Source: an uncultured virus (IMG/VR IMGVR_UViG_3300013110_000368) (Duplodnaviria; Heunggongvirae; Uroviricota; Caudoviricetes; Kyanoviridae). Taken from it: DNA of 64,000 nt. This document shows, one piece after another, positions 20,815 through 59,363 of the stretch (within the stretch, counting starts at the first letter, position 1; every line of letters begins with the position of its first letter). The notes beneath the pieces were generated by a model, which saw only the letters and a list, made by a program, of their open reading frames with translations, had not been told where the DNA came from and ran no database searches. The position numbers and the translations under genes are program-made. The DNA lies in the IMG/VR virus record IMGVR_UViG_3300013110_000368; one strand, given 5' to 3'.

Positions 20815-20822
20815 TATAAATA
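20815..20822 (+). promoter_or_regulatory. T4-type late promoter TATAAATA (drives gp4)
   Basis: Exact TATAAATA immediately upstream of the gp4 ATG at 20828. Confidence 0.75.
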
Positions 20823-20827
20823 TGATT

Positions 20828-21268
20828 ATGGCATACAGTGGAAAATACCCCGTTATCAACAGAGATAAGTACATCGGAAATCCCAACAAGGTAATATATC
20901 GTTCCTCTTGGGAAAAGGATTTCATGCAGTACTGTGATCGGAATAAGAATGTGCTAAATTGGTGCAGTGAAAATCCCATCATCAAGTACTTTTGCCCCAC
21001 TGACAAAAAATGGCACAGATATTTTCCAGACTTCTATATTAGAGTTAAACAATCGGATGGGAACATAAAAGAATTCATTATTGAAGTAAAACCAATACGT
21101 CAAACCAGACCACCGAAACAAGGCAAAAGCAGACGTAGATATTTATACGAGCAATTTGCATGGACAAAGAATAAAGCAAAATGGGAAGCCGCAACACGAT
21201 ATTGTGAAAAACGAAAATGGGAATTTAAGATACTAACCGAGAAGGAACTCAAAATAGGATATAAATAG
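20828..21268 (+). CDS. gp4: Head completion nuclease gp4 (TnsA-like)
   Basis: MAYSGKY..N..KY.G...YRSSWE, W.SE, HRYFPDF, IEVKP and NKAKWEAA; start trimmed to 20828. Confidence 0.92.
   Translation: MAYSGKYPVINRDKYIGNPNKVIYRSSWEKDFMQYCDRNKNVLNWCSENPIIKYFCPTDKKWHRYFPDFYIRVKQSDGNIKEFIIEVKPIRQTRPPKQGKSRRRYLYEQFAWTKNKAKWEAATRYCEKRKWEFKILTEKELKIGYK
21260..21267 (+). promoter_or_regulatory. T4-type late promoter TATAAATA upstream of gp2
   Basis: Exact motif 5 nt before the gp2 ATG. Confidence 0.7.
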
Positions 21269-21272
21269 TCAT

Positions 21273-21830
21273 ATGGCAACTATATTCGACAATCTAAAAA
21301 AAGCGGGGCAAAATGCAATCACATGGTTAAGGCAGAATGCCGCCAAACTGAGTTCAGTTACACCAGCAGAATTAATGCGTGATGCCGACAACAAGACCAA
21401 TAACATACAAATGGGAAAAATGTATATGTTTCATTACGATCCCAAGCACAAAACTAGATTGCCCTACTATGATACATTCCCATTAGTCATACCCATAGAA
21501 AAATACTCCAACGGGTTTCTCGGTCTAAATTTGCACTACCTTGCACCCAAACTAAGAATGGATCTCTTAGCAGGTCTGACGACAATTACTAATAACGAAA
21601 GTATGAATGAAAATACTAGAATGATGGTAACATATAATTTACTGGAGTCAACCAAAAGACATCGGTACTTCAAACCAACAGTAAAACGATATTTGGCAAC
21701 TCACATCCAAAGTAGTTTTCTCAACATCAAAGCAAGTGAATGGGAAACAGCAATTTTTTTGCCAGTTGAACAATTTGTCAAAAAAAATAAAAAGGCAGTG
21801 TGGAAACTCTCAGAGGAATTACTATCATGA
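21273..21830 (+). CDS. gp2: DNA end protector protein gp2
   Basis: GKMYMFHYDPKHK..LPYYDTFPL, GFLGLNLHYL and W..AIFLPVEQF. Confidence 0.93.
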   Translation: MATIFDNLKKAGQNAITWLRQNAAKLSSVTPAELMRDADNKTNNIQMGKMYMFHYDPKHKTRLPYYDTFPLVIPIEKYSNGFLGLNLHYLAPKLRMDLLAGLTTITNNESMNENTRMMVTYNLLESTKRHRYFKPTVKRYLATHIQSSFLNIKASEWETAIFLPVEQFVKKNKKAVWKLSEELLS

Positions 21831-22804
21831 ACAACATCAATCAAACAATTAATGGATTGTCAAATTATATTGCAAGTCAAGGTGGCATACCACATCTAAA
21901 CCGATTTGCAGTGGAAATACCCTATCCCGAATCAATGAAGGTAAGATATGGTGATGATGAAAGATATAAAAACGTACTGAAGTTTCTACACTTCAGTGCC
22001 AGATCTGTAGGTCTGCCATCTAAATCAATTAGTACCAATGCAGTACTAGCTGCAGGCCCAGAACAAAAATACCCATATACAGACGTTTATGACGATCTAA
22101 CAGTTACTTTCATGCCAACTAAAGGGAAAGGGGAATTTGGATTACCCGAAAGAAAATTCTTTGAAGATTGGATTTCTACTGTGGTAGATCAAAATAATAT
22201 GCTAGTTGGATTTTCTGAAGGAGAAGGTGCTTATAGTGTTCCATTGAAACTGTCTGTATTATCAGACCAAAGAGGGAGTCCATCAAGGTTGGTACAATAC
22301 AATTTTTCTAGGGCTTATCCTATCGCCATTAGTGAAATTCAATTTGCAGCTGCAGCTCACGAACTCATGATATTTAAGGTGACATTCTCATACGACAAAA
22401 TTAACAGAGAAGACATAACAAACATGCCAGATAATAAAGACAATCCAGCATCTGTATTACCAGATCAAACATTGTTGGGAAAACCAGAAACACCAGAACG
22501 TCCAGATAGGATTTGGGCATCCGACCAATTCTACGCACAACCACCAAAACCCAAAACTCCAGAACGTCCGAATAGAGTAAAAAAACCAGAACCACCAAAA
22601 CCCAAAACTCCAGAACGCAAAGATAGAGTAGAAAAATGGGAAGCAAAAAAAGATGATTGGACAAAATCACCAATAGAAAATAAAAGAGTAGTAGGTGGAC
22701 ACGCAAACACTCCTACACCCAAAAAACTAACTAAAGCAGTACTCGGTAGAGTAGCAAATCGTGCCAGAGCAGAACTCGGAATAAGACCAATGCTTGATGA
22801 ATAA
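21827..22804 (+). CDS. Tail tube initiator / tube-like protein (gp54/gp19-like) with a Pro/Lys-rich C-terminal extension
   Basis: NRFAV.I, LPSKSI, ERKFFEDW, AYPIAISEI and FKVTFSY; lies between gp2 and gp26. Confidence 0.75.
   Translation: MNNINQTINGLSNYIASQGGIPHLNRFAVEIPYPESMKVRYGDDERYKNVLKFLHFSARSVGLPSKSISTNAVLAAGPEQKYPYTDVYDDLTVTFMPTKGKGEFGLPERKFFEDWISTVVDQNNMLVGFSEGEGAYSVPLKLSVLSDQRGSPSRLVQYNFSRAYPIAISEIQFAAAAHELMIFKVTFSYDKINREDITNMPDNKDNPASVLPDQTLLGKPETPERPDRIWASDQFYAQPPKPKTPERPNRVKKPEPPKPKTPERKDRVEKWEAKKDDWTKSPIENKRVVGGHANTPTPKKLTKAVLGRVANRARAELGIRPMLDE
22539..22617 (+). repeat. Intragenic 28-bp direct repeat (PPKPKTPER twice, 51-nt period)
   Basis: aaccaccaaaacccaaaactccagaacg at 22539 and 22590. 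Confidence 0.8.
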
Positions 22805-22823
22805 AAATAGGAGATAATAAATT

Positions 22824-23528
22824 ATGCCTTTACCCGTAATAAATGCACCAACATATGAATTGACCATACCATCAACTGGACAAACCGTTCAGTATAGGCC
22901 ATTTCTAGTCAAAGAAGAAAAAATCCTACTAATGGCAAATGAAGGTGGAGAAGCATCTGAAATAGTTCGTGCCATGAAACAGATCATCGGTAACTGTATT
23001 CAGGATGGATACAATACCGACAACATGCCATTGTTTGACGTGGAATACATATTCCTAAAACTCAGATCTAAATCAGTAAACGAATTCTCTGAAGTTGGAT
23101 TTAGATGCCCCGAATGTGATGAGGTAAATAGAATTCAAATCGACCTATCTAGTGTTGAAATTTCAACCAATGACACCCACAGCAACAAAATAGAACTTAC
23201 AAATGATATTGGCCTGATAATGAAATATCCACAACTGGATTCCATAAATATGAATGACCTACAAAGTACCGATGTGGATACCATATTCAATGTAGTTAGT
23301 TCTTGTGTAGATTCCATCTATCAAGGTGAAGAAATACACGATAGTGGTGATTACACTAAACAGGAAATTTCCGAATTCATAAATAACTTAACACAAGAAC
23401 AGTTTCTAAAAATACAACAGTTCTTCGATACAATGCCTAAACTATCGCATACAGTACCATATAACTGTAGTAAATGTGAATACGACGATCCTTTATTATT
23501 GGAAGGGTTGCAGAATTTTTTCGCATAG
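22824..23528 (+). CDS. gp26: Baseplate hub assembly chaperone gp26
   Basis: MPLP...PTYELTIPSTG..V.YRPFLVKEEKILL, FDVEYIFLKLRSKSV and C-terminal EGLQNFF. Confidence 0.92.
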   Translation: MPLPVINAPTYELTIPSTGQTVQYRPFLVKEEKILLMANEGGEASEIVRAMKQIIGNCIQDGYNTDNMPLFDVEYIFLKLRSKSVNEFSEVGFRCPECDEVNRIQIDLSSVEISTNDTHSNKIELTNDIGLIMKYPQLDSINMNDLQSTDVDTIFNVVSSCVDSIYQGEEIHDSGDYTKQEISEFINNLTQEQFLKIQQFFDTMPKLSHTVPYNCSKCEYDDPLLLEGLQNFFA

Positions 23529-23554
23529 GGTTAGGACATGAAACGTTAGAAAGT

Positions 23555-23713
23555 ATGTACCTAACCAATTTCGCAATGATGCAACACCACAACTACAATT
23601 TAAATGATTTAGAAAACATGATACCATTTGAGAGGGAACTATACGTCACCCTTCTTTCAAATTATATCAAAGAGGAAAACGAAAAAATAAAGGCACAACA
23701 ATCAAAGTTTTAA
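23555..23713 (+). CDS. gp51: Baseplate hub assembly catalyst gp51 (possibly made as a gp26-gp51 frameshift fusion)
   Basis: Not in the ORF track. Manual translation: MYLTNFAMMQHHNYNLNDLENMIPFERELYVTLLSNYIKEENEKIKAQQSKF. Confidence 0.88.
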   Translation: MYLTNFAMMQHHNYNLNDLENMIPFERELYVTLLSNYIKEENEKIKAQQSKF

Positions 23714-23928
23714 TTAGATTATTACAATACGGATGGTTAGTTAAACGTAAAGGATGGTGGTATAAATTTCCATTCTTGCCCATCCCACCAAAAGCATGGT
23801 TACTATGGAGACTTGAAACCGCATGGGGAATTGACTCTATGAATCCTAAATGGGAAGATTTCCCAACTATCCCTGTTATGATACATGATGTCTATAATTT
23901 TGGTCATTGGTTGACCCAATTCAAATAA
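23713..23928 (+). CDS. Trp-rich hypothetical protein lacking a canonical 5' start codon
   Basis: Open frame IRLLQYGWLVKRKGWWYKFPFLPIPPKAWLLWRLETAWG...HWLTQFK* exactly fills the gap; ATT overlaps the gp51 stop. Confidence 0.5.
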   Translation: MRLLQYGWLVKRKGWWYKFPFLPIPPKAWLLWRLETAWGIDSMNPKWEDFPTIPVMIHDVYNFGHWLTQFK

Positions 23929-23934
23929 AACGAT

Positions 23935-24540
23935 ATGGATAGCATGGAACAAGAACTTATTAATAGGATACCAGAACTCACTGACCTCATTCTACCGTGG
24001 CTAGGAATTATGCTATCGGTAGTTATCTTCATGTGGTTTAAAGATTATGCACTGCAAATATCTAAAGGATTGAAATTCAAACTAGACCCACACTTCCAAG
24101 AGGGAGATCAGGTCTGGTTAGAAGATGAACCAGCAGTGATTGTCAAGATTGGTCTATCCTCAACCGTATTCGGTATAGTAAATGGTCGTGGATATATTTG
24201 GAGATTTGTACCCAACGAGTCTATCTTTGATATGAAATTAGAAAAAATCGTTAGTGATAAGATACACTATGATTCAGAAGCAGAGCAAGGTAGAAAAATC
24301 AAACGATTGTTATCCATAGACGAAGAACAAGATTACAAAATTGCCCAAAACAAAAGGCACGATGTAGAACAGGATGTGGAATTGGAACAGAATTTAGTAC
24401 GAGATCTACAACATGATAAAATATTGGAAGAACACAGCAAAGCAATCGCACAAATATCATCTTTGGTGCAATCACACGGTTCAGAAGAACTGAAAGATGC
24501 AGCTGAAGATCTCATGAAAGATCTAACCAATAAGGCATAG
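23935..24540 (+). CDS. Membrane protein with an MscS-like beta domain
   Basis: TM helix followed by GLKF...FQEGDQVWLEDEPAVIVKIGLSSTVF...RFVPN. Confidence 0.6.
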   Translation: MDSMEQELINRIPELTDLILPWLGIMLSVVIFMWFKDYALQISKGLKFKLDPHFQEGDQVWLEDEPAVIVKIGLSSTVFGIVNGRGYIWRFVPNESIFDMKLEKIVSDKIHYDSEAEQGRKIKRLLSIDEEQDYKIAQNKRHDVEQDVELEQNLVRDLQHDKILEEHSKAIAQISSLVQSHGSEELKDAAEDLMKDLTNKA

Positions 24541-24544
24541 TAAA

Positions 24545-26953
24545 ATGGCAGACTTACAAGACGAAATACGAAAATTAGAAGAAGAACGACTAAAAAGAAT
24601 CACAGAGGAAAGGAAATTAGCAGCTGAAATTTCTGATCTGACTAAAGAAACCAAAGAAAATCAAATTAAAGCTGAAAAAAATCTTCAAAATGCCAATGAA
24701 GAACATGCCAAACAACAACAAAAAATAGCAGATCTGAGAAAAAAACTGGACGGAGAAGAAGCAGAAAAAAACGAGAAAATGAAAGAAGGTCTGAATCAGG
24801 CAATAAAAACCCAAGAAGACCTTCTTAATAAACTAGACGAAGAACAAAAATCCAGAAAAAAAACATTAGATGTAAGTACAGAAGCCCTCAATATAAACAC
24901 TGATTTAGCAAAAAAGGCAATAGCAAATCAAAAAGAACATGCTCTTGCTGAAAAACAAAAAACAGACGAAGCAAACAAAAAGAAACTAGAAGCACAAAAA
25001 AGTGATGCCAAAAAGCAAAAGGAAATTGCTGATAAAGAAAAACTACTATTCAAACTAAAAGAAACACAAATAAATGGTCTTCAAAATACATTATTGGGCA
25101 TAAACAAATCAATAACTGAATTTGGTGATACCATAAAGGGAAGGTTTGCACAAACAACAATAGGAAAAGGTCTAAGTTTAGCGGGAAAAGGTCTAAGTTT
25201 ATTCAAAAAAGTAAAAGATCCCGAAATTGAAAAACAAGAAAAAGAACTGGCAAAACTAAAAGGTGAAAAACCAGAAGAAGAAAAAGAAAAAGAACTGGCA
25301 AAACTAAAAGGTGAAAAACCAGAAGAAGAAAAAGAAAAAGAAAAAGCAAAAGTATCTGCGTTACTGAAACCGTTTGGTATTGGGGGAATAATAGAAAAAC
25401 AAGAAAAAAAGGACGAATTGCTAAATCCAAAAAAAGAAGAAAGTGAAGATAAATCAGATACCCCACAAAATGTTAATATAGTTTCTCAGCCCAAACCAGA
25501 AAAGGATTCCTTCGCAGAAGAAAAGGCAAAAGAAGCTTCACATGTTCAAGCAGAACAAACAGAAACGCAAGAACGAATTGCCGACTCTTTAGAAAAAAGT
25601 CAAACACTAAAAGTTGAAGGAAAAGAAGGTGGAATATTTGGAAAAATTATAGGTGGAATATTCAACCCACTAAAAACACTTGGAGATATGGTAAGTGGAA
25701 TATTCGATATAATTGACGCATTTATTAAAGGTATTGGCCAAATTCTAAAATCAGCACTTGGGGTAGTTAAAGATTTAGTTAAGGGTATTGGTGATATTCT
25801 ACTCACACTCGTTGATATTATAGGTAAAGGATTCGTAAAGATAATGACCTTTGCTGGTCGAGGTATCGCCGCACTATTCAAAGCACTAGGATCAATTCCC
25901 CCACAAGCACTTCTGATAGGAGCAGCTGCAATAGGTGTACTAACACTGGCATTTATGGGATTGGGTAAGGGTCTACAAATGATGACCCCTGCAATCAAAG
26001 AATTGGCAACCATACCATTTGACAATTTCCTATCACTTGCTGGTGGATTACTGGTTCTCTCACCAGCACTAATTGCATTTGGTGTTGGGGCTGCAATTGC
26101 CACGCCAGGATTTCTCGGTCTAGCACTCGGTGTTGGTGCATTGGGATTGGCAATGAAATTACTTGCCCCTGCTATTGAAACCATAGTACCACCCATAACC
26201 GACTTATTAGGTGGTTTTGGTGATTTCCTCTCGACCCTACAAGGTATTGTTAGCAAATTCTTTACCTCCATCGGTGATTTCATTGCTACAGTTGGAACGG
26301 CAATCAGTGACTTTATTAGTAACTTTGCCCAATCATTAGTCATAATGAACGATGCTGATTTCGTACATATAGCAGCTGGATTTGTTGCTTTGGGGGTTGC
26401 TCTTGCTGGTTTTGGTGTTGCAGCTGCAATTGCCATACCATCACTACTCGCACTAGGCAGTGCTTCCAGTGGCCTTGCTGATTTGATTAATGTACCACCA
26501 GACAGGTTTGATGCACTTAGAGAAAGTTTCAAACTATTAGGCAAGGCAGTCAAAGGATTTGCCAAAGATGCAAAAGGATTGGGTAGTACTGTTGTAGCAA
26601 TGGGGGCATTGAGTATGATGCCATTTGCCAGAAAGTTACTAGATGTACAACTGGCAAAAACTGAAACTAGAAATGTAGTTGACAACTTTAAAGGTGGGGT
26701 CGCAGAAGCAATTCAACCAGTAGACATCGTATCGTTCTCTGGAGCAAGAACAGAAAGAGGTATAGAAATGCTAAGACAAGCAGCTGAAACTAATGAAATA
26801 CGTGATGAAACCATAATGCAAGCAACATCATCACCGCAAATAGTTTCAACACCAATCACGACTGCCAATTCTGTCACTAATAATGCACTAATCGTACAAG
26901 ACTCACCAACTGATTCTGGTTTTCGAGCATCAGTAGGAACTTATGGGCCATAA
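24545..26953 (+). CDS. Tape-measure-like protein (gp29-like)
   Basis: Long coiled-coil N-terminus and Ala/Gly/Leu-rich hydrophobic repeats; follows gp26/gp51. Confidence 0.75.
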   Translation: MADLQDEIRKLEEERLKRITEERKLAAEISDLTKETKENQIKAEKNLQNANEEHAKQQQKIADLRKKLDGEEAEKNEKMKEGLNQAIKTQEDLLNKLDEEQKSRKKTLDVSTEALNINTDLAKKAIANQKEHALAEKQKTDEANKKKLEAQKSDAKKQKEIADKEKLLFKLKETQINGLQNTLLGINKSITEFGDTIKGRFAQTTIGKGLSLAGKGLSLFKKVKDPEIEKQEKELAKLKGEKPEEEKEKELAKLKGEKPEEEKEKEKAKVSALLKPFGIGGIIEKQEKKDELLNPKKEESEDKSDTPQNVNIVSQPKPEKDSFAEEKAKEASHVQAEQTETQERIADSLEKSQTLKVEGKEGGIFGKIIGGIFNPLKTLGDMVSGIFDIIDAFIKGIGQILKSALGVVKDLVKGIGDILLTLVDIIGKGFVKIMTFAGRGIAALFKALGSIPPQALLIGAAAIGVLTLAFMGLGKGLQMMTPAIKELATIPFDNFLSLAGGLLVLSPALIAFGVGAAIATPGFLGLALGVGALGLAMKLLAPAIETIVPPITDLLGGFGDFLSTLQGIVSKFFTSIGDFIATVGTAISDFISNFAQSLVIMNDADFVHIAAGFVALGVALAGFGVAAAIAIPSLLALGSASSGLADLINVPPDRFDALRESFKLLGKAVKGFAKDAKGLGSTVVAMGALSMMPFARKLLDVQLAKTETRNVVDNFKGGVAEAIQPVDIVSFSGARTERGIEMLRQAAETNEIRDETIMQATSSPQIVSTPITTANSVTNNALIVQDSPTDSGFRASVGTYGP
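25238..25342 (+). repeat. 48-bp tandem duplication (EKELAKLKGEKPEEEK twice)
   Basis: Identical units start at 25238 and 25286. Confidence 0.85.
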
Positions 26954-28519: not shown

Positions 28520-29093
28520 GCTTATTTTTCAATATTTCACGAAAAACTTTAACATCGACATCAAGAAAACTAACATATTTCTGACACAGATTTCGTGTTT
28601 CTGGCCACATGATGTCATCTTCAATCTGACTATCAAACTGTGGAAAAAAATTCAAAATCTGGTTCACTATCACGAAAGTTTCCAACGATATATCCCCACG
28701 ATAATACATGGTTAATATTGTTGGATTCTGCCCATCTTCGACCATGAACAGTTGGTCTAAGTCGGACACATCTAGCAATTTAGATATATCCGACTTGAAT
28801 TGATAACGCAATCTCTGTGTTCGTTTTCTCCAATCCTGATAAACCTGATCTGATTCTTCTGTATGAAGACCACCATATTTATCACCACTGGAGAAATTTG
28901 CCACAAAGAATTGCATTATATTCTTTTCATTGTACTGACGACAAAGATGATCGAACCTGTACTTATCCCTTCGTTTGTAAAAGGAATCACTACTTGCCCG
29001 TACCTTGCCATTGTACTTGAAATAATCATAACTCTTGCTAAAAAAATGCAACCTAATTGCCATGTACACTTTATAGCAATCCAAAGGATTCAT
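28509..29093 (-). CDS. gp59: Helicase loader gp59
   Basis: YKVYMAIRLHF...YDYFKYNGK, FYKRRDKY.F, FFVANF and ISLETFVI. Confidence 0.92.
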   Translation of the reverse strand: MNPLDCYKVYMAIRLHFFSKSYDYFKYNGKVRASSDSFYKRRDKYRFDHLCRQYNEKNIMQFFVANFSSGDKYGGLHTEESDQVYQDWRKRTQRLRYQFKSDISKLLDVSDLDQLFMVEDGQNPTILTMYYRGDISLETFVIVNQILNFFPQFDSQIEDDIMWPETRNLCQKYVSFLDVDVKVFREILKNKLDI

Positions 29094-29347
29094 ATAGGCA
29101 ATGCACCTGTTCTTGGTAGCAGATTCAATTCCATTGCCTCTAACTCTAATTTATCCTTCAGTGACTTGTTTAGTAACTTCGGCACTATGTCAACCGCAAT
29201 ATCATTTTCATCAATAAATGCAAATACTGCATCAACATAACTGCTCAGTTCCCAATCACGTTTAATAGTCTCAACCCCCAAAGAAAAACTTTTACTGGTA
29301 TGCTCAGTTACAACCTCTAAGAATTCTTCTTCCGTTAGTGCCAACAT
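29090..29347 (-). CDS. gp33: Late transcription co-activator gp33
   Basis: SYVDAV...KLLNKSLKDKLELEAMELNLL....LPI; adjacent to gp59. Confidence 0.88.
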   Translation of the reverse strand: MLALTEEEFLEVVTEHTSKSFSLGVETIKRDWELSSYVDAVFAFIDENDIAVDIVPKLLNKSLKDKLELEAMELNLLPRTGALPI

Positions 29348-29352
29348 TTATC

Positions 29353-30249
29353 TTACCCCTGTAAAAGTTGCATCACAGTCTGTGATAATTGCTGTGCCTG
29401 TGCCATCATAGCAATTGCTGTTTGCTGTCGAATCTGAAAATCAGCAAGAGATGCCATCTCAGCTGCTTCATCAAAATCCAATATAGTGGCAAGACTTTCT
29501 TCATTCATTGTAATCATATTACCCAAATGACTGATAGTAAAGTTAAACCGTTCTATTTTGGAATTGACATCAGATGCTTCTGCTTGAACAGTTGCAATGG
29601 CTGCATCTATACGTGCCAGTGCATCATCGGCATCATTTGCACTGTCGATGGATGTGGCAGAAACCGATACTGTATCACCTTCAGAATAAGTACCACCCTG
29701 ACCATTATCTTGACCAATACGGCTATCTCCTGATTCCAATGTAACCGTATGTGCAGTCAATTTCAATCCATCAAGGGTGAGATCTGATAATTCAATATTG
29801 ATGGTTTCGGTTTCCCCCGTACCTTCGATAATAACATCTCTATCACCAAAAGTACCATCCAATAATTCAACCCCATCGTAAGACGTATTCTTTGCCACAT
29901 AATCTAATTCCTTTACTAATGCATTAAACTCATCAATCAACCCTGCTCTAGTATCAGCAGTCAAATCCTCATTTGAAGATTGAACTGCAATTTCTCGCAA
30001 TCGAGTTAGAACGTCATTGACAGAACTAACACCACTCTCTGCTGTTTCTAGCAAATCTTGACTTTGTTTGACAGTACTATTTGCCAATCGCAACATACTC
30101 AAGGTGGTGTTCATTCTCCCAACCCTTGCTTTATCACCAGAATTTAGATCTGGTCGTCCTTCTGCAATTCTACGCATTGAATTTTCAACTTCTCTAGTTG
30201 CCAGTGCATACTGCGTGTGTGCTTTTGCGGTTATTCCACTAAGATTCAT
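29353..30249 (-). CDS. fliC: Flagellin-like protein (phage-encoded)
   Basis: LLETAESGVSSVNDVLTRLREIAVQSSN...EFNALVKELD..AKNTSYDGVELLDG and C-terminal ALARIDAAI...I.D.D.AAEM..L...QI.QQ.AIAMMAQA.Q....V.QLLQ; SD AAGGGG before ATG 30249. Confidence 0.92.
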   Translation of the reverse strand: MNLSGITAKAHTQYALATREVENSMRRIAEGRPDLNSGDKARVGRMNTTLSMLRLANSTVKQSQDLLETAESGVSSVNDVLTRLREIAVQSSNEDLTADTRAGLIDEFNALVKELDYVAKNTSYDGVELLDGTFGDRDVIIEGTGETETINIELSDLTLDGLKLTAHTVTLESGDSRIGQDNGQGGTYSEGDTVSVSATSIDSANDADDALARIDAAIATVQAEASDVNSKIERFNFTISHLGNMITMNEESLATILDFDEAAEMASLADFQIRQQTAIAMMAQAQQLSQTVMQLLQG

Positions 30250-30272
30250 ACGAATTCCCCTTTTTTCCATTA

Positions 30273-31337: not shown

Positions 31338-31499
31338 TTATATTGGTGTGTTTAACCAATTTACTATCTTACCCCAAAAGGTAAGTTTTTTGATTTTTTT
31401 CTTTGCTGATTTCTTCTTGTATCGTACACCTGTATGAACTCCAAACTCTGCATTATCCAATTTTCTTTTTAATCCACGTTTGAATTTTGTTGATTTCAT
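31338..31499 (-). CDS. Small basic hypothetical protein
   Basis: MKSTKFKRGLKRK...FWGKIVNWLNTPI. Confidence 0.4.
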   Translation of the reverse strand: MKSTKFKRGLKRKLDNAEFGVHTGVRYKKKSAKKKIKKLTFWGKIVNWLNTPI

Positions 31500-31767
31500 T
31501 TTTATTGTAATCCTTATAGATAGACCAAACAACCATACACAAAAAAGTCATTATAAACCCTAATGTGTAGTTGAGAATCAACCATATTGCATTGACTTCT
31601 CTAATTAAAACGTATCCTAAACCACACCAATACCCTAAAGCATTGATAATTAACATCACCAAACTCACATCTTTTGAACTCTTACGTCTAACCATCTTTA
31701 CTATCTGTGGTATATATGCACCACTAAAAGAAATGGTCAATATTGCCCCGAAAATGCTATCTATCAT
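31453..31767 (-). CDS. PQ-loop / SemiSWEET-like membrane protein
   Basis: AYIPQIVKMVRRKSSKDVS motif and three TM helices. Confidence 0.8.
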   Translation of the reverse strand: MIDSIFGAILTISFSGAYIPQIVKMVRRKSSKDVSLVMLIINALGYWCGLGYVLIREVNAIWLILNYTLGFIMTFLCMVVWSIYKDYNKNEINKIQTWIKKKIG

Positions 31768-31969
31768 GCTTATTGAAATCCCTTATCATAACAAAAAACC
31801 AAAATAATCCATTACAAATCCAAACAGTTACCACAAGATTAACAAAAAACATTTCCATAAATTCCCATTTCTTTTATTTTAAGTCGTGCCACACGATTGT
31901 ATCAAGTCGGTAGTGTGGCATACCTTTATCATATCGCTTGGGTTGCTATAACTCTTGGGATATGACAGA

Positions 31970-32141
31970 AAATGGGCAGTTTCTGTTGACAAGTACTGCC
32001 CAAACTCCGGCCTACCTATTAGGCAGCCATGGGTAATTGATTGTAGTTTCCAATTACTATTTTGCAACTTCTGAGTTGTTGCCACTCCATGCAATCTACT
32101 CTCCACCATCGTCGTACCTGTCGATTTCCAATTGCGCCCCC
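31970..32141 (-). ncRNA. ssrA: tmRNA coding piece of a permuted two-piece tmRNA; tag (A)GNYNQLPMAA at 32051-32019
   Basis: 5' GGGGGCGCAATTGGAAATCGAC; tag frame GGA AAC TAC AAT CAA TTA CCC ATG GCT GCC TAA TAG; terminal hairpin GGGCAGT...ACTGCCC. Confidence 0.88.
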
Positions 32142-32145
32142 GTAA

Positions 32146-32217
32146 TGGAGTAGATCGGATTTGAACCGATGACCCCTTGCTTGCAAAGCAAGTATTCTCC
32201 CACTGAACTACTACCCC
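32146..32217 (-). tRNA. tRNA-Ala(UGC), CCA not encoded
   Basis: Cloverleaf: acceptor GGGGTAG/CTACTCC-A with G3:U70, anticodon arm CTTGC-TTTGCAA-GCAAG, T-arm ATCGG-TTCAAAT-CCGAT. Confidence 0.93.
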
Positions 32218-32224
32218 AAATGAA

Positions 32225-32290
32225 TGGTGGAGGCGAGGGGAATCGAACCCCTGTCCAGTATACCGACAATTTCGTATCAACAATTGCAAG
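32225..32290 (-). ncRNA. ssrA: tmRNA acceptor piece (T-arm and CCA) of the permuted tmRNA
   Basis: ...GGAC AGGGG TTCGATT CCCCT CGCCTCC ACCA; CGCCTCC pairs with GGGGGCG at 32141 (G3:U70), ATTGTCG with CGACGAT, and TGCAAT with ATTGCA. Confidence 0.88.
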
Positions 32291-32296
32291 TCCTTG

Positions 32297-32623
32297 TTAT
32301 GGTTTGTAAAAAGTTTTCAAATCTGTTTTTATTTTACCACCAATATTATCTTGATACTCATCTTCTAGGTTCACCATTCTCGATTCTACATCGGAACAAT
32401 GTTCTTTGATCCTCTTATTGACCACATCCTGTTCAACTAACAGTTGACCTTTACTATCATTATCCACTTTGATGTCTATCTGTTCTGCACCCAAAAGGTC
32501 AATCAAATCCCGATATGTTTTCGATACATAATCAGGTAGTTGCTCTTGATCTAAACCTTTGACTTCAATACTATATTCCCTTTTGGGATTCATCGACATA
32601 ACTTTAATTGAAACGTCTGGCAT
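32297..32623 (-). CDS. Hypothetical protein
   Basis: ORF track, operon packing. Confidence 0.55.
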   Translation of the reverse strand: MPDVSIKVMSMNPKREYSIEVKGLDQEQLPDYVSKTYRDLIDLLGAEQIDIKVDNDSKGQLLVEQDVVNKRIKEHCSDVESRMVNLEDEYQDNIGGKIKTDLKTFYKP

Positions 32624-58907: not shown

Positions 58908-59363
58908 TTAATCCTTTGCGAACCATCGGTTCATAATGTTTGAATTGTAATATTTCCGTTCCCCATCGGGAAACGTCGATGTCAATACATCTTCCTTGAA
59001 TTGGTATTCAGTTTCCGTGTACCCCAATTCCGATTTCGTTTTGCAAAATTTTAATATCTCAAAATCAAACCCCTCTTTCCCTAATGTTTCGATTTCTTGG
59101 TTCAGTTCATCACATGAACCAGTGTACTCTTTCCAATCGGACTCTTTCTTGACATGCTTCCGATTGACTCGGCCCTTGACTTTCTTTCGTCTGGTGAACA
59201 CCAACTGCTTCTTCCCGATGTATGACCTACCTGTGTCCTTACGTGTAATCCGATATACGAACCCGAAATAATTGGTTGGTTGAATTTCCTCATTCATCCG
59301 TACCGTTCGGTGGTATACATATTTATCTTCAAGTGTCCAATGCCCTAATTCCATCACAACCAT
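58908..59363 (-). CDS. GIY-YIG endonuclease (endonuclease II/Seg-like)
   Basis: YFGFVYRIT...SYIGKK...ESDWKEYTGS...F.FEIL...YYN. Confidence 0.85.
   Translation of the reverse strand: MVVMELGHWTLEDKYVYHRTVRMNEEIQPTNYFGFVYRITRKDTGRSYIGKKQLVFTRRKKVKGRVNRKHVKKESDWKEYTGSCDELNQEIETLGKEGFDFEILKFCKTKSELGYTETEYQFKEDVLTSTFPDGERKYYNSNIMNRWFAKD

Follow-up and report, generated by a model that had tools for sequence, protein, structure and literature searches.

Does a tRNA that lies between the two halves of a tmRNA take part in making that tmRNA, or is it cargo that happens to be expressed from there? The question is raised by a short locus on the minus strand of a 64,000-nucleotide stretch of DNA from an uncultured virus (IMG/VR record IMGVR_UViG_3300013110_000368), below called the window. 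An earlier note on this DNA, made from the letters alone, had read the locus as a permuted two-piece tmRNA in which a complete tRNA-Ala(UGC) makes up the intervening segment. It had further suggested that one nested precursor yields two AlaRS substrates and that processing of the tRNA may release the ends of the tmRNA, and it knew of no described example.

Architecture and identity of the two RNAs

ARAGORN called a permuted tmRNA at 31928-32318 with the tag GNYNQLPMAA and two stop codons, together with a tRNA-Ala(tgc) at 32145-32218 that is the sole tRNA in the window. In Rfam the tmRNA_permuted family (RF04321) matched 32019-32288 over the full model (positions 1-213) with 91.7 bits against a gathering score of 47 (E 2.3e-16), and the tRNA family (RF00005) matched 32146-32217 with 70.4 bits against 29 (E 2.4e-13). 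No other family reached its gathering score in the 64-kb window, and this includes the standard one-piece tmRNA model of Rfam. The parts follow each other in the permuted order of acceptor piece, intervening segment and coding piece (Table 1), and both the parts list and the coordinates of the earlier note were recovered base for base on the minus strand.

Table 1 Features of the permuted tmRNA locus and its flanking genes in the window.
Feature	Position	Strand	Sequence or remark	Basis
tmRNA acceptor piece	32225..32288	-	ends ...GGTTCGATTCCCCTCGCCTCCACCA at 32225; nominal 5' end at the first helix	ARAGORN, Rfam, covariation of every helix
Acceptor piece, 5' arms	32288-32283; 32270-32264	-	TGCAAT; ATTGTCG	
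Acceptor piece, T-arm	32252-32236	-	AGGGG/TTCGATT/CCCCT	
Acceptor 3' strand	32235-32229	-	CGCCTCC, then discriminator A	
Encoded CCA of acceptor piece	32227-32225	-	CCA	
Spacer, tmRNA CCA to tRNA	32218..32224	-	TTCATTT, 7 nt, U-rich	
tRNA-Ala(UGC)	32146..32217	-	72 nt; anticodon 32185-32183	Rfam, ARAGORN
Spacer, tRNA discriminator to tmRNA G1	32142..32145	-	TTAC, 4 nt	
tmRNA coding piece	31966..32141	-	3' end approximate	
Acceptor 5' strand (start of coding piece)	32141-32135	-	GGGGGCG	
Coding piece, 3' arms	32114-32108; 32095-32090	-	CGACGAT; ATTGCA	
Tag frame	32051-32016	-	GGA...GCC TAA TAG; GNYNQLPMAA	
Terminal hairpin	32001-31974	-	GGGCAGT...ACTGCCC, then ATTTTCTG	
PQ-loop (SWEET-like) membrane protein gene	31453-31767	-	immediately downstream of tmRNA	
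gp33 coactivator gene	29093-29347			

The two halves of the tmRNA can pair with each other across the tRNA, as had been proposed. The pairing comprises a 7-bp acceptor stem with a G3:U70 pair and two further helices, in which ATTGTCG faces CGACGAT and TGCAAT faces ATTGCA; the first tmRNA helix begins 8 nt after the stop codon of the upstream ORF (32299-32297). The tRNA carries the same G3:U70 identity pair, a discriminator A73 followed directly by TTAC, and no encoded CCA. The resume codon of the tmRNA is GGA (Gly) and not GCN, and the tag ends in AA and a stop. Between the tmRNA and the PQ-loop gene the minus strand also holds a hairpin, TGCCACAC...GTGTGGCA (31887-31920), which overlaps a promoter-like match at 31905-31876 and is preserved through compensatory changes in one of the relatives described below (L282, GGTGGC...GCCACC).

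A one-piece gene was the competing reading named in the earlier note. No second acceptor 3' strand was found downstream on the minus strand, and since the only same-strand partner for GGGGGCG is the segment 32235-32229, the gene is not a one-piece gene. With respect to family, the beta_tmRNA model (RF01850), run on the IMG/VR record that is identical over the locus, spanned 31963-32334 with 60.2 bits and did not reach its gathering score of 84, and phage tmRNAs that share the T-arm score 98-136 bits with this model. The window tmRNA works like the betaproteobacterial type; it should not be filed as a member of RF01850.

Shuffled sequences fold as stably as the 222-nt core (z = -0.07), so the structural support comes from covariation and from the family models and not from folding energy. 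The centroid structure of the core still recovers the helices that span the tRNA.

Genomic context

The window derives from a T4-like myovirus, with genes for gp5 OB, gp6, the baseplate wedge, gp25, gp53 and a T4 baseplate protein, and further for gp32, gp59, the late coactivator gp33 and RNase H. Its GC content is about 37% and nearly all genes lie on the minus strand. The best matches of gp6 are found in Pelagibacter phage HTVC008M (38%) and in Mosig and the Methylophilales phage Melnitz (37%). In the long ORFs of the phage, GCA, which is the cognate codon of the nested tRNA, accounts for 496 of the 845 Ala codons (59%).

Among the 72 window ORFs scanned there was no Pfam match for SmpB, a CCA-adding enzyme or RNase Z, in keeping with reliance on the host for these proteins, and neither a sigma-70-type promoter nor an intrinsic terminator consensus was found beside the tmRNA gene. 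A glutamine riboswitch, reported for Melnitz, is absent from the window at the gathering score and gave no match at E <= 0.1 in the 8 loci searched.

Some of the other genes in the window deserve mention in their own right. A 305-aa ORF located between the tmRNA region and the gp33 gene (29356-30270, minus strand) matches the N- and C-terminal helical domains of bacterial flagellin (E 9e-17 and 1.4e-13), an unusual cargo for a T4-like phage. The minus-strand genome is interrupted by a block of plus-strand genes at 20822-26950, in which a protein with a TnsA-like endonuclease N-terminal domain (20822-21265, E 1.4e-21) adjoins the T4 baseplate protein gene, and a SegE-type GIY-YIG endonuclease is encoded at 58911-59363.

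The nest is conserved in three diverged lineages

The pattern used to scan metagenome contigs joined the T-loop and CCA of the tmRNA to the beginning of a tRNA-Ala and to GGGGNNG. The same nesting was found in 7 of the 28 loci obtained (L287, L282, L295, L277, L299, L283 and L284), on contigs carrying five different accession prefixes, while the other 21 loci hold Ala-Ala tandems, interrupted tRNAs or standard tmRNAs with tRNAs behind them. In six of the nests (L287 left out) Rfam gave tmRNA_permuted 52-90 bits and the tRNA 65.1-70.1 bits.

Together with the window the nests form three diverged lineages. Lineage A holds the window, L287, L282 and L295. Lineage B (L277 and L299) has the acceptor stem GGGGCTG and the tags GNQNILPMAA and GNENTLPMAA, and lineage C (L283 and L284) has the acceptor stem GGGGATG and the tag GEHVEMAMAA; GNEYQLPMAA is a further tag found among the relatives. 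In front of the tRNA, lineages A and B have a spacer of 5-7 nt and lineage C one of 1-2 nt; the spacer between the tRNA and G1 reads TTAT or TTTTG in the relatives and is 12 nt long in lineage C. One member of lineage A departs from the others: in L295 (306-528, minus strand) the acceptor piece and the tRNA-Ala are present, but the coding piece breaks off after about 45 nt and gives way to unrelated sequence, and the Rfam match covers model positions 6-128 only. Either the tmRNA has decayed here or the contig is chimeric.

Some candidates from the searches were set aside. L298 turned out to be a standard tmRNA with a tRNA-Met behind it, in L198 a one-piece tmRNA of the standard kind comes after tRNA-Val and tRNA-Asn, and a "tRNA-His(atg)" that overlaps the acceptor piece in L062 was taken as a false call. 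Five other loci (L279, L280, L289, L292 and L293) show a normal tRNA 5' acceptor and D-arm followed by an insert of approximately 60-100 nt before the T-arm, and these may be interrupted or intron-bearing tRNAs.

For quantification of the covariation, the window and its seven relatives were aligned (alignment A1, 8 sequences, 52 pairs) and compared with 500 shuffles and with slid controls. Paired cells amounted to 95.4%, against a shuffle mean of 84.9% and with none of the 500 shuffles reaching the observed value, and the slid controls were 41-54% paired. Changes on both sides were seen at 20 pairs, again reached by 0 of 500 shuffles, although the independent compensatory events behind this number are few, since the eight sequences represent three lineages only. 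The tmRNA acceptor stem and T-arm are each 100% paired with 2 covarying pairs, and the outer tmRNA helices are 87-89% paired with 7 covarying pairs, so the proposed pairing across the tRNA is borne out by compensatory changes in the relatives. In the tRNA, pairing in the four stems amounts to 95-100%, and 9 pairs differ on both sides among the eight sequences. G3:U70 of the tRNA (alignment columns 84/152) and A73 are found in 8 of 8 sequences and the anticodon is invariant, as is G3:U70 of the tmRNA across the eight.

In lineages A and B the PQ-loop gene keeps its place downstream of the tmRNA, at 56-93% amino acid identity. Because the identity of this neighbour is only 56-60% in L282, L277 and L299, the nest must have been retained over a long divergence.

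In the IMG/VR scans the tRNA-Ala nest was seen solely in the window's own record. An exact 25-mer scan of IMG/VR returned 23 loci, nested only in that record, and a generic scan for spacers of 70-100 nt returned at least 120 loci; the matches listed included 116 tmRNA calls and a single nest, L077, which is described below. No nest was present among the 54 loci from the pattern scan of genome contigs, a blastn search of cultured phages with the locus gave generic tRNA-Ala matches only, and relatives sought through the upstream ORF or through the 5' end of the coding piece led back to the window's own record.

Taken as a whole, the agreement between ARAGORN, Rfam and the relatives supports the reading of the locus as a permuted two-piece tmRNA, with an intervening segment that is an intact tRNA-Ala, evidently kept by selection.

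Relatives that do without the nested tRNA

A scan with the tag end brought up a sister tmRNA (L305/L306) with the tag GEYNQLPMAA, the same helices and an RF04321 score of 79.8 bits, in which CCA and G1 are separated by 3 nt (TAT) and no tRNA is present. To place it, a tmRNA tree was built with the spacer removed and six other phage tmRNAs as outgroup. The clade of tmRNAs with G-tags is monophyletic (99/99), and L305/L306 join lineage A inside the tRNA-bearing clade with a support of 93/98, of which the bootstrap value of 93 lies below the threshold of 95. A tree that keeps all tRNA-bearers together was rejected (AU p = 0.0103), with the reservation that this group was defined only on inspection of the finished tree. 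The most economical history would be a single gain of the tRNA-Ala at the base of the clade followed by a clean loss in the L305 lineage. A contig from run X5, approximately 94% alike over 31877-32155, has a tmRNA T-arm that ends exactly 14 nt before G1, which hints at another close relative without the tRNA.

The cultured phages closest in gp6 present a similar picture. HTVC008M, Mosig and Melnitz each carry a permuted tmRNA like that of the window (RF04321, 90.6-113.4 bits), and the Mosig tag begins with G as does the window's, but their spacers are stem-closed hairpins of 49, 44 and 142 nt, respectively, where the window has the tRNA-Ala. The Melnitz tmRNA is reported to lie upstream of the gp33 coactivator gene (PMC9004378), which is the same general neighbourhood as in the window. 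The 142-nt spacer of Melnitz (L310 1472-1924, MZ577097.1) has about three times the length of the HTVC008M and Mosig spacers and is closed by AAACACTT/AAGTGTTT.

Hairpin spacers closed in this manner are common. Viral scans yielded 123 distinct spacers, a biased sample in that the patterns fixed the spacer length or required the T-loop, and of the 122 spacers of at least 40 nt, 111 are closed by an unbroken stem of no less than 7 bp, compared with 62 of 610 shuffles. Among these 111 closing stems, 98 begin 0-1 nt past the CCA and 97 end 4-5 nt before G1. The acceptor stem of the window tRNA ends 5 nt before the tmRNA G1, and the tRNA therefore occupies the position of the closing stem of an ordinary spacer.

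This geometry bears on the suggestion that processing of the nested tRNA releases the ends of the tmRNA. As an obligatory processing module the tRNA would stand where closing stems stand, and the RNase P cut at its 5' side would define the short trailer of the acceptor piece. We consider such a dependence improbable. L305/L306 have only TAT between CCA and G1, the cultured relatives use plain hairpin spacers of 44-142 nt, and in the Synechococcus phage S-SSM7 about 4 nt stand at the site of the tRNA-Asn of its relatives (see below). In addition, RNase P is reported to recognize G1 of two-piece tmRNAs through the tmRNA's own acceptor and T arms (PMC11915505). Since relatives do without a nested tRNA, the tRNA is dispensable for the tmRNA; it is a cargo that can be lost, and the nest does not amount to a novel route to a tmRNA.

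Other tRNAs nested in phage tmRNAs

The tRNA-Ala is not the only tRNA found between the halves of a phage tmRNA. In four IMG/VR contigs (L077/L156, L172, L209 and L210) a tRNA-Asn(GUU) is nested in a cyano-type permuted tmRNA, 1 nt after the CCA and 5 nt before G1, and this tRNA terminates a tRNA array. The tmRNAs of this type score 118 and 109 bits with the cyano_tmRNA family (RF01851). A counterpart from the cultured Synechococcus phage S-SSM7 (109.4 bits) is 90% identical and carries about 4 nt at the position of the tRNA. Relative to it the tRNA-Asn nest is a clean indel, independent of the tRNA-Ala nest. As in the window, a whole tRNA is placed between CCA and G1 and a tRNA-less counterpart exists; the tRNA-Asn nests differ from the window in the cyano type of the tmRNA, in the identity of the tRNA and in its place as the last member of a tRNA array. 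In the S-SSM7 record the permuted tmRNA (L302 704-922; NC_015287.1 21009-21227, ARAGORN) is annotated as hypothetical protein SSSM7_025.

A third kind of tRNA is found in L188 (525-619, plus strand), where a tRNA of 93-95 nt with a long variable arm and the anticodon UAU (Rfam 57.7 bits) abuts the CCA of a permuted tmRNA with zero spacer; the tag of this tmRNA is EEGQNRVNANQIKPFARKTSLAVA. Among the 123 spacers ARAGORN at default settings found tRNAs in 5, against 0 of 1,230 shuffles, and at relaxed settings in 13, against 5 of 1,230, from which it appears that a few spacers look like decayed tRNAs.

An intact, high-scoring tRNA-Ala in the intervening sequence has also been described as "unique" for a permuted tmRNA designated GCA-2688965__sp002688965.2, from a nominally archaeal MAG for which the authors suspect misbinning (PMC11915505). 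A full-text literature search returned this report as the only statement of a tRNA nested in a permuted tmRNA, so that a described example does exist. Compared by description only, the published arrangement is the same as that in the window, and a misbinned MAG would fit a phage contig. In the parts of PMC11915505 that deal with it the nest takes up one sentence, which gives no phage origin, conservation, covariation, presence/absence pattern or mechanism. A second report describes two-piece tmRNAs as common in marine phages, and a nested tRNA goes unmentioned in the relevant parts of its text (PMC9004378). The tRNA-Ala nest is thus a rare arrangement that had already been noticed, to which the window adds a real and conserved member.

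These nests speak against a second role that could be given to the tRNA, in which the nest would co-produce two AlaRS substrates at a fixed stoichiometry, for example to balance the competition for AlaRS during infection. It would agree with such a design that a tRNA-Ala specifically was kept in all three diverged lineages, that G3:U70 is invariant in both RNAs, and that the single published nest likewise holds a tRNA-Ala (PMC11915505). However, the three lineages share one origin and count as one event, other phage tmRNAs nest a tRNA-Asn or a tRNA(UAU), and the sister lineage without the tRNA is viable (L305/L306). A coupling that is specific for alanine is as improbable as the processing module discussed above.

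Transcription, processing and the role of the tRNA

RNA-library contigs from two studies bridge both junctions of the nest (32120-32312, 32068-32265 and 32090-32277). They span all three parts, as expected for the single nested precursor that had been proposed; DNA carry-over is a possible source of such contigs as well, and co-transcription as one precursor is weakly indicated.

Phage T4 makes its tRNAs from multimeric precursors, in which dimers are cut by RNase P and the members without an encoded CCA need 3' trimming and CCA addition. The window resembles these precursors in its AlaRS- or RNase P-type substrates on what would be one phage transcript, in their spacing of a few nucleotides and in the predicted use of host RNase P, 3' processing and CCA addition. 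It differs in that one RNA is wrapped around the other, while the partners in a T4 precursor lie side by side.

We consider it probable that the locus encodes a functional permuted tmRNA of a marine T4-like phage and that its spacer carries a functional tRNA-Ala(UGC) as cargo, not as a required device. One precursor transcript would cover the whole unit, and the acceptor stem and the long helices of the tmRNA would close around a separately folded tRNA cloverleaf. Host RNase P would then cut at the 5' end of the tRNA and at the tmRNA G1 to give three RNAs, in line with reports that tRNA-processing enzymes cleave permuted tmRNA transcripts and that G1 of a two-piece tmRNA is recognized through its own arms (PMC11915505). 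The predicted 7-nt trailer of the acceptor piece would be trimmed by exonucleases back to the encoded CCA, and the predicted 4-nt UUAC trailer of the tRNA would be removed by RNase Z or exonucleases. Since no CCA is encoded for the tRNA, it would be added post-transcriptionally by the host nucleotidyltransferase, after which AlaRS would charge both the tRNA and the tmRNA through G3:U70. The spacer would offer a safe expression slot, because it is removed from the tmRNA in any case, an RNase P site adjoins it and its transcription is good. The benefit of the cargo is likely to be decoding, and the tRNA would have been retained for reading GCA, the dominant Ala codon of the phage.

It is very improbable that the tRNA is a neutral hitch-hiker or a decaying pseudogene that landed in the spacer by recombination and is left unused. 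Spacers are indeed highly exchangeable and some resemble decayed tRNAs, as seen with relaxed ARAGORN. Against this, the tRNA scores 65-70 bits in every lineage with all stems kept through compensatory changes, the anticodon, G3:U70 and A73 stayed invariant while the neighbouring protein diverged to 56-60% identity, and the tRNA matches the dominant Ala codon of the phage. An assembly artefact or a misread one-piece tmRNA, for which no supporting point was found, can practically be dismissed, as the same architecture is present in the window's IMG/VR record and in 7 metagenome contigs with five accession prefixes, a downstream acceptor 3' strand is absent and the standard tmRNA model has no match.

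The reading of the tRNA as a functional cargo may extend beyond tRNA-Ala. It is conceivable, though rather doubtful at present, that the spacer of phage tmRNAs is a general, repeatedly used slot in which whole tRNAs, among them Ala, Asn and the long-arm UAU tRNA, are gained, are expressed and processed without added cost, decay to the tRNA-like or plain stem-closed hairpins of most phage tmRNA spacers, and are lost cleanly. If this is true, many "ordinary" spacers would be tRNA fossils, and a nest could determine in which order, or how efficiently, the tmRNA matures in the infected cell.

Such genes will escape annotation pipelines that discard a tmRNA call when it overlaps with a tRNA, or that place ORFs over these RNAs, as happened in S-SSM7. 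The pairs of tmRNAs with and without a tRNA are a clean natural system for studying RNase P and 3' processing of a substrate that is wrapped around another substrate, and since such pairs exist the nest is worth a short experimental study. What had been a "unique" oddity of a doubtful archaeal bin becomes a trait conserved within one clade of marine T4-like phages, and as such the nest bears on the reasons why phages carry tmRNA and tRNAs.
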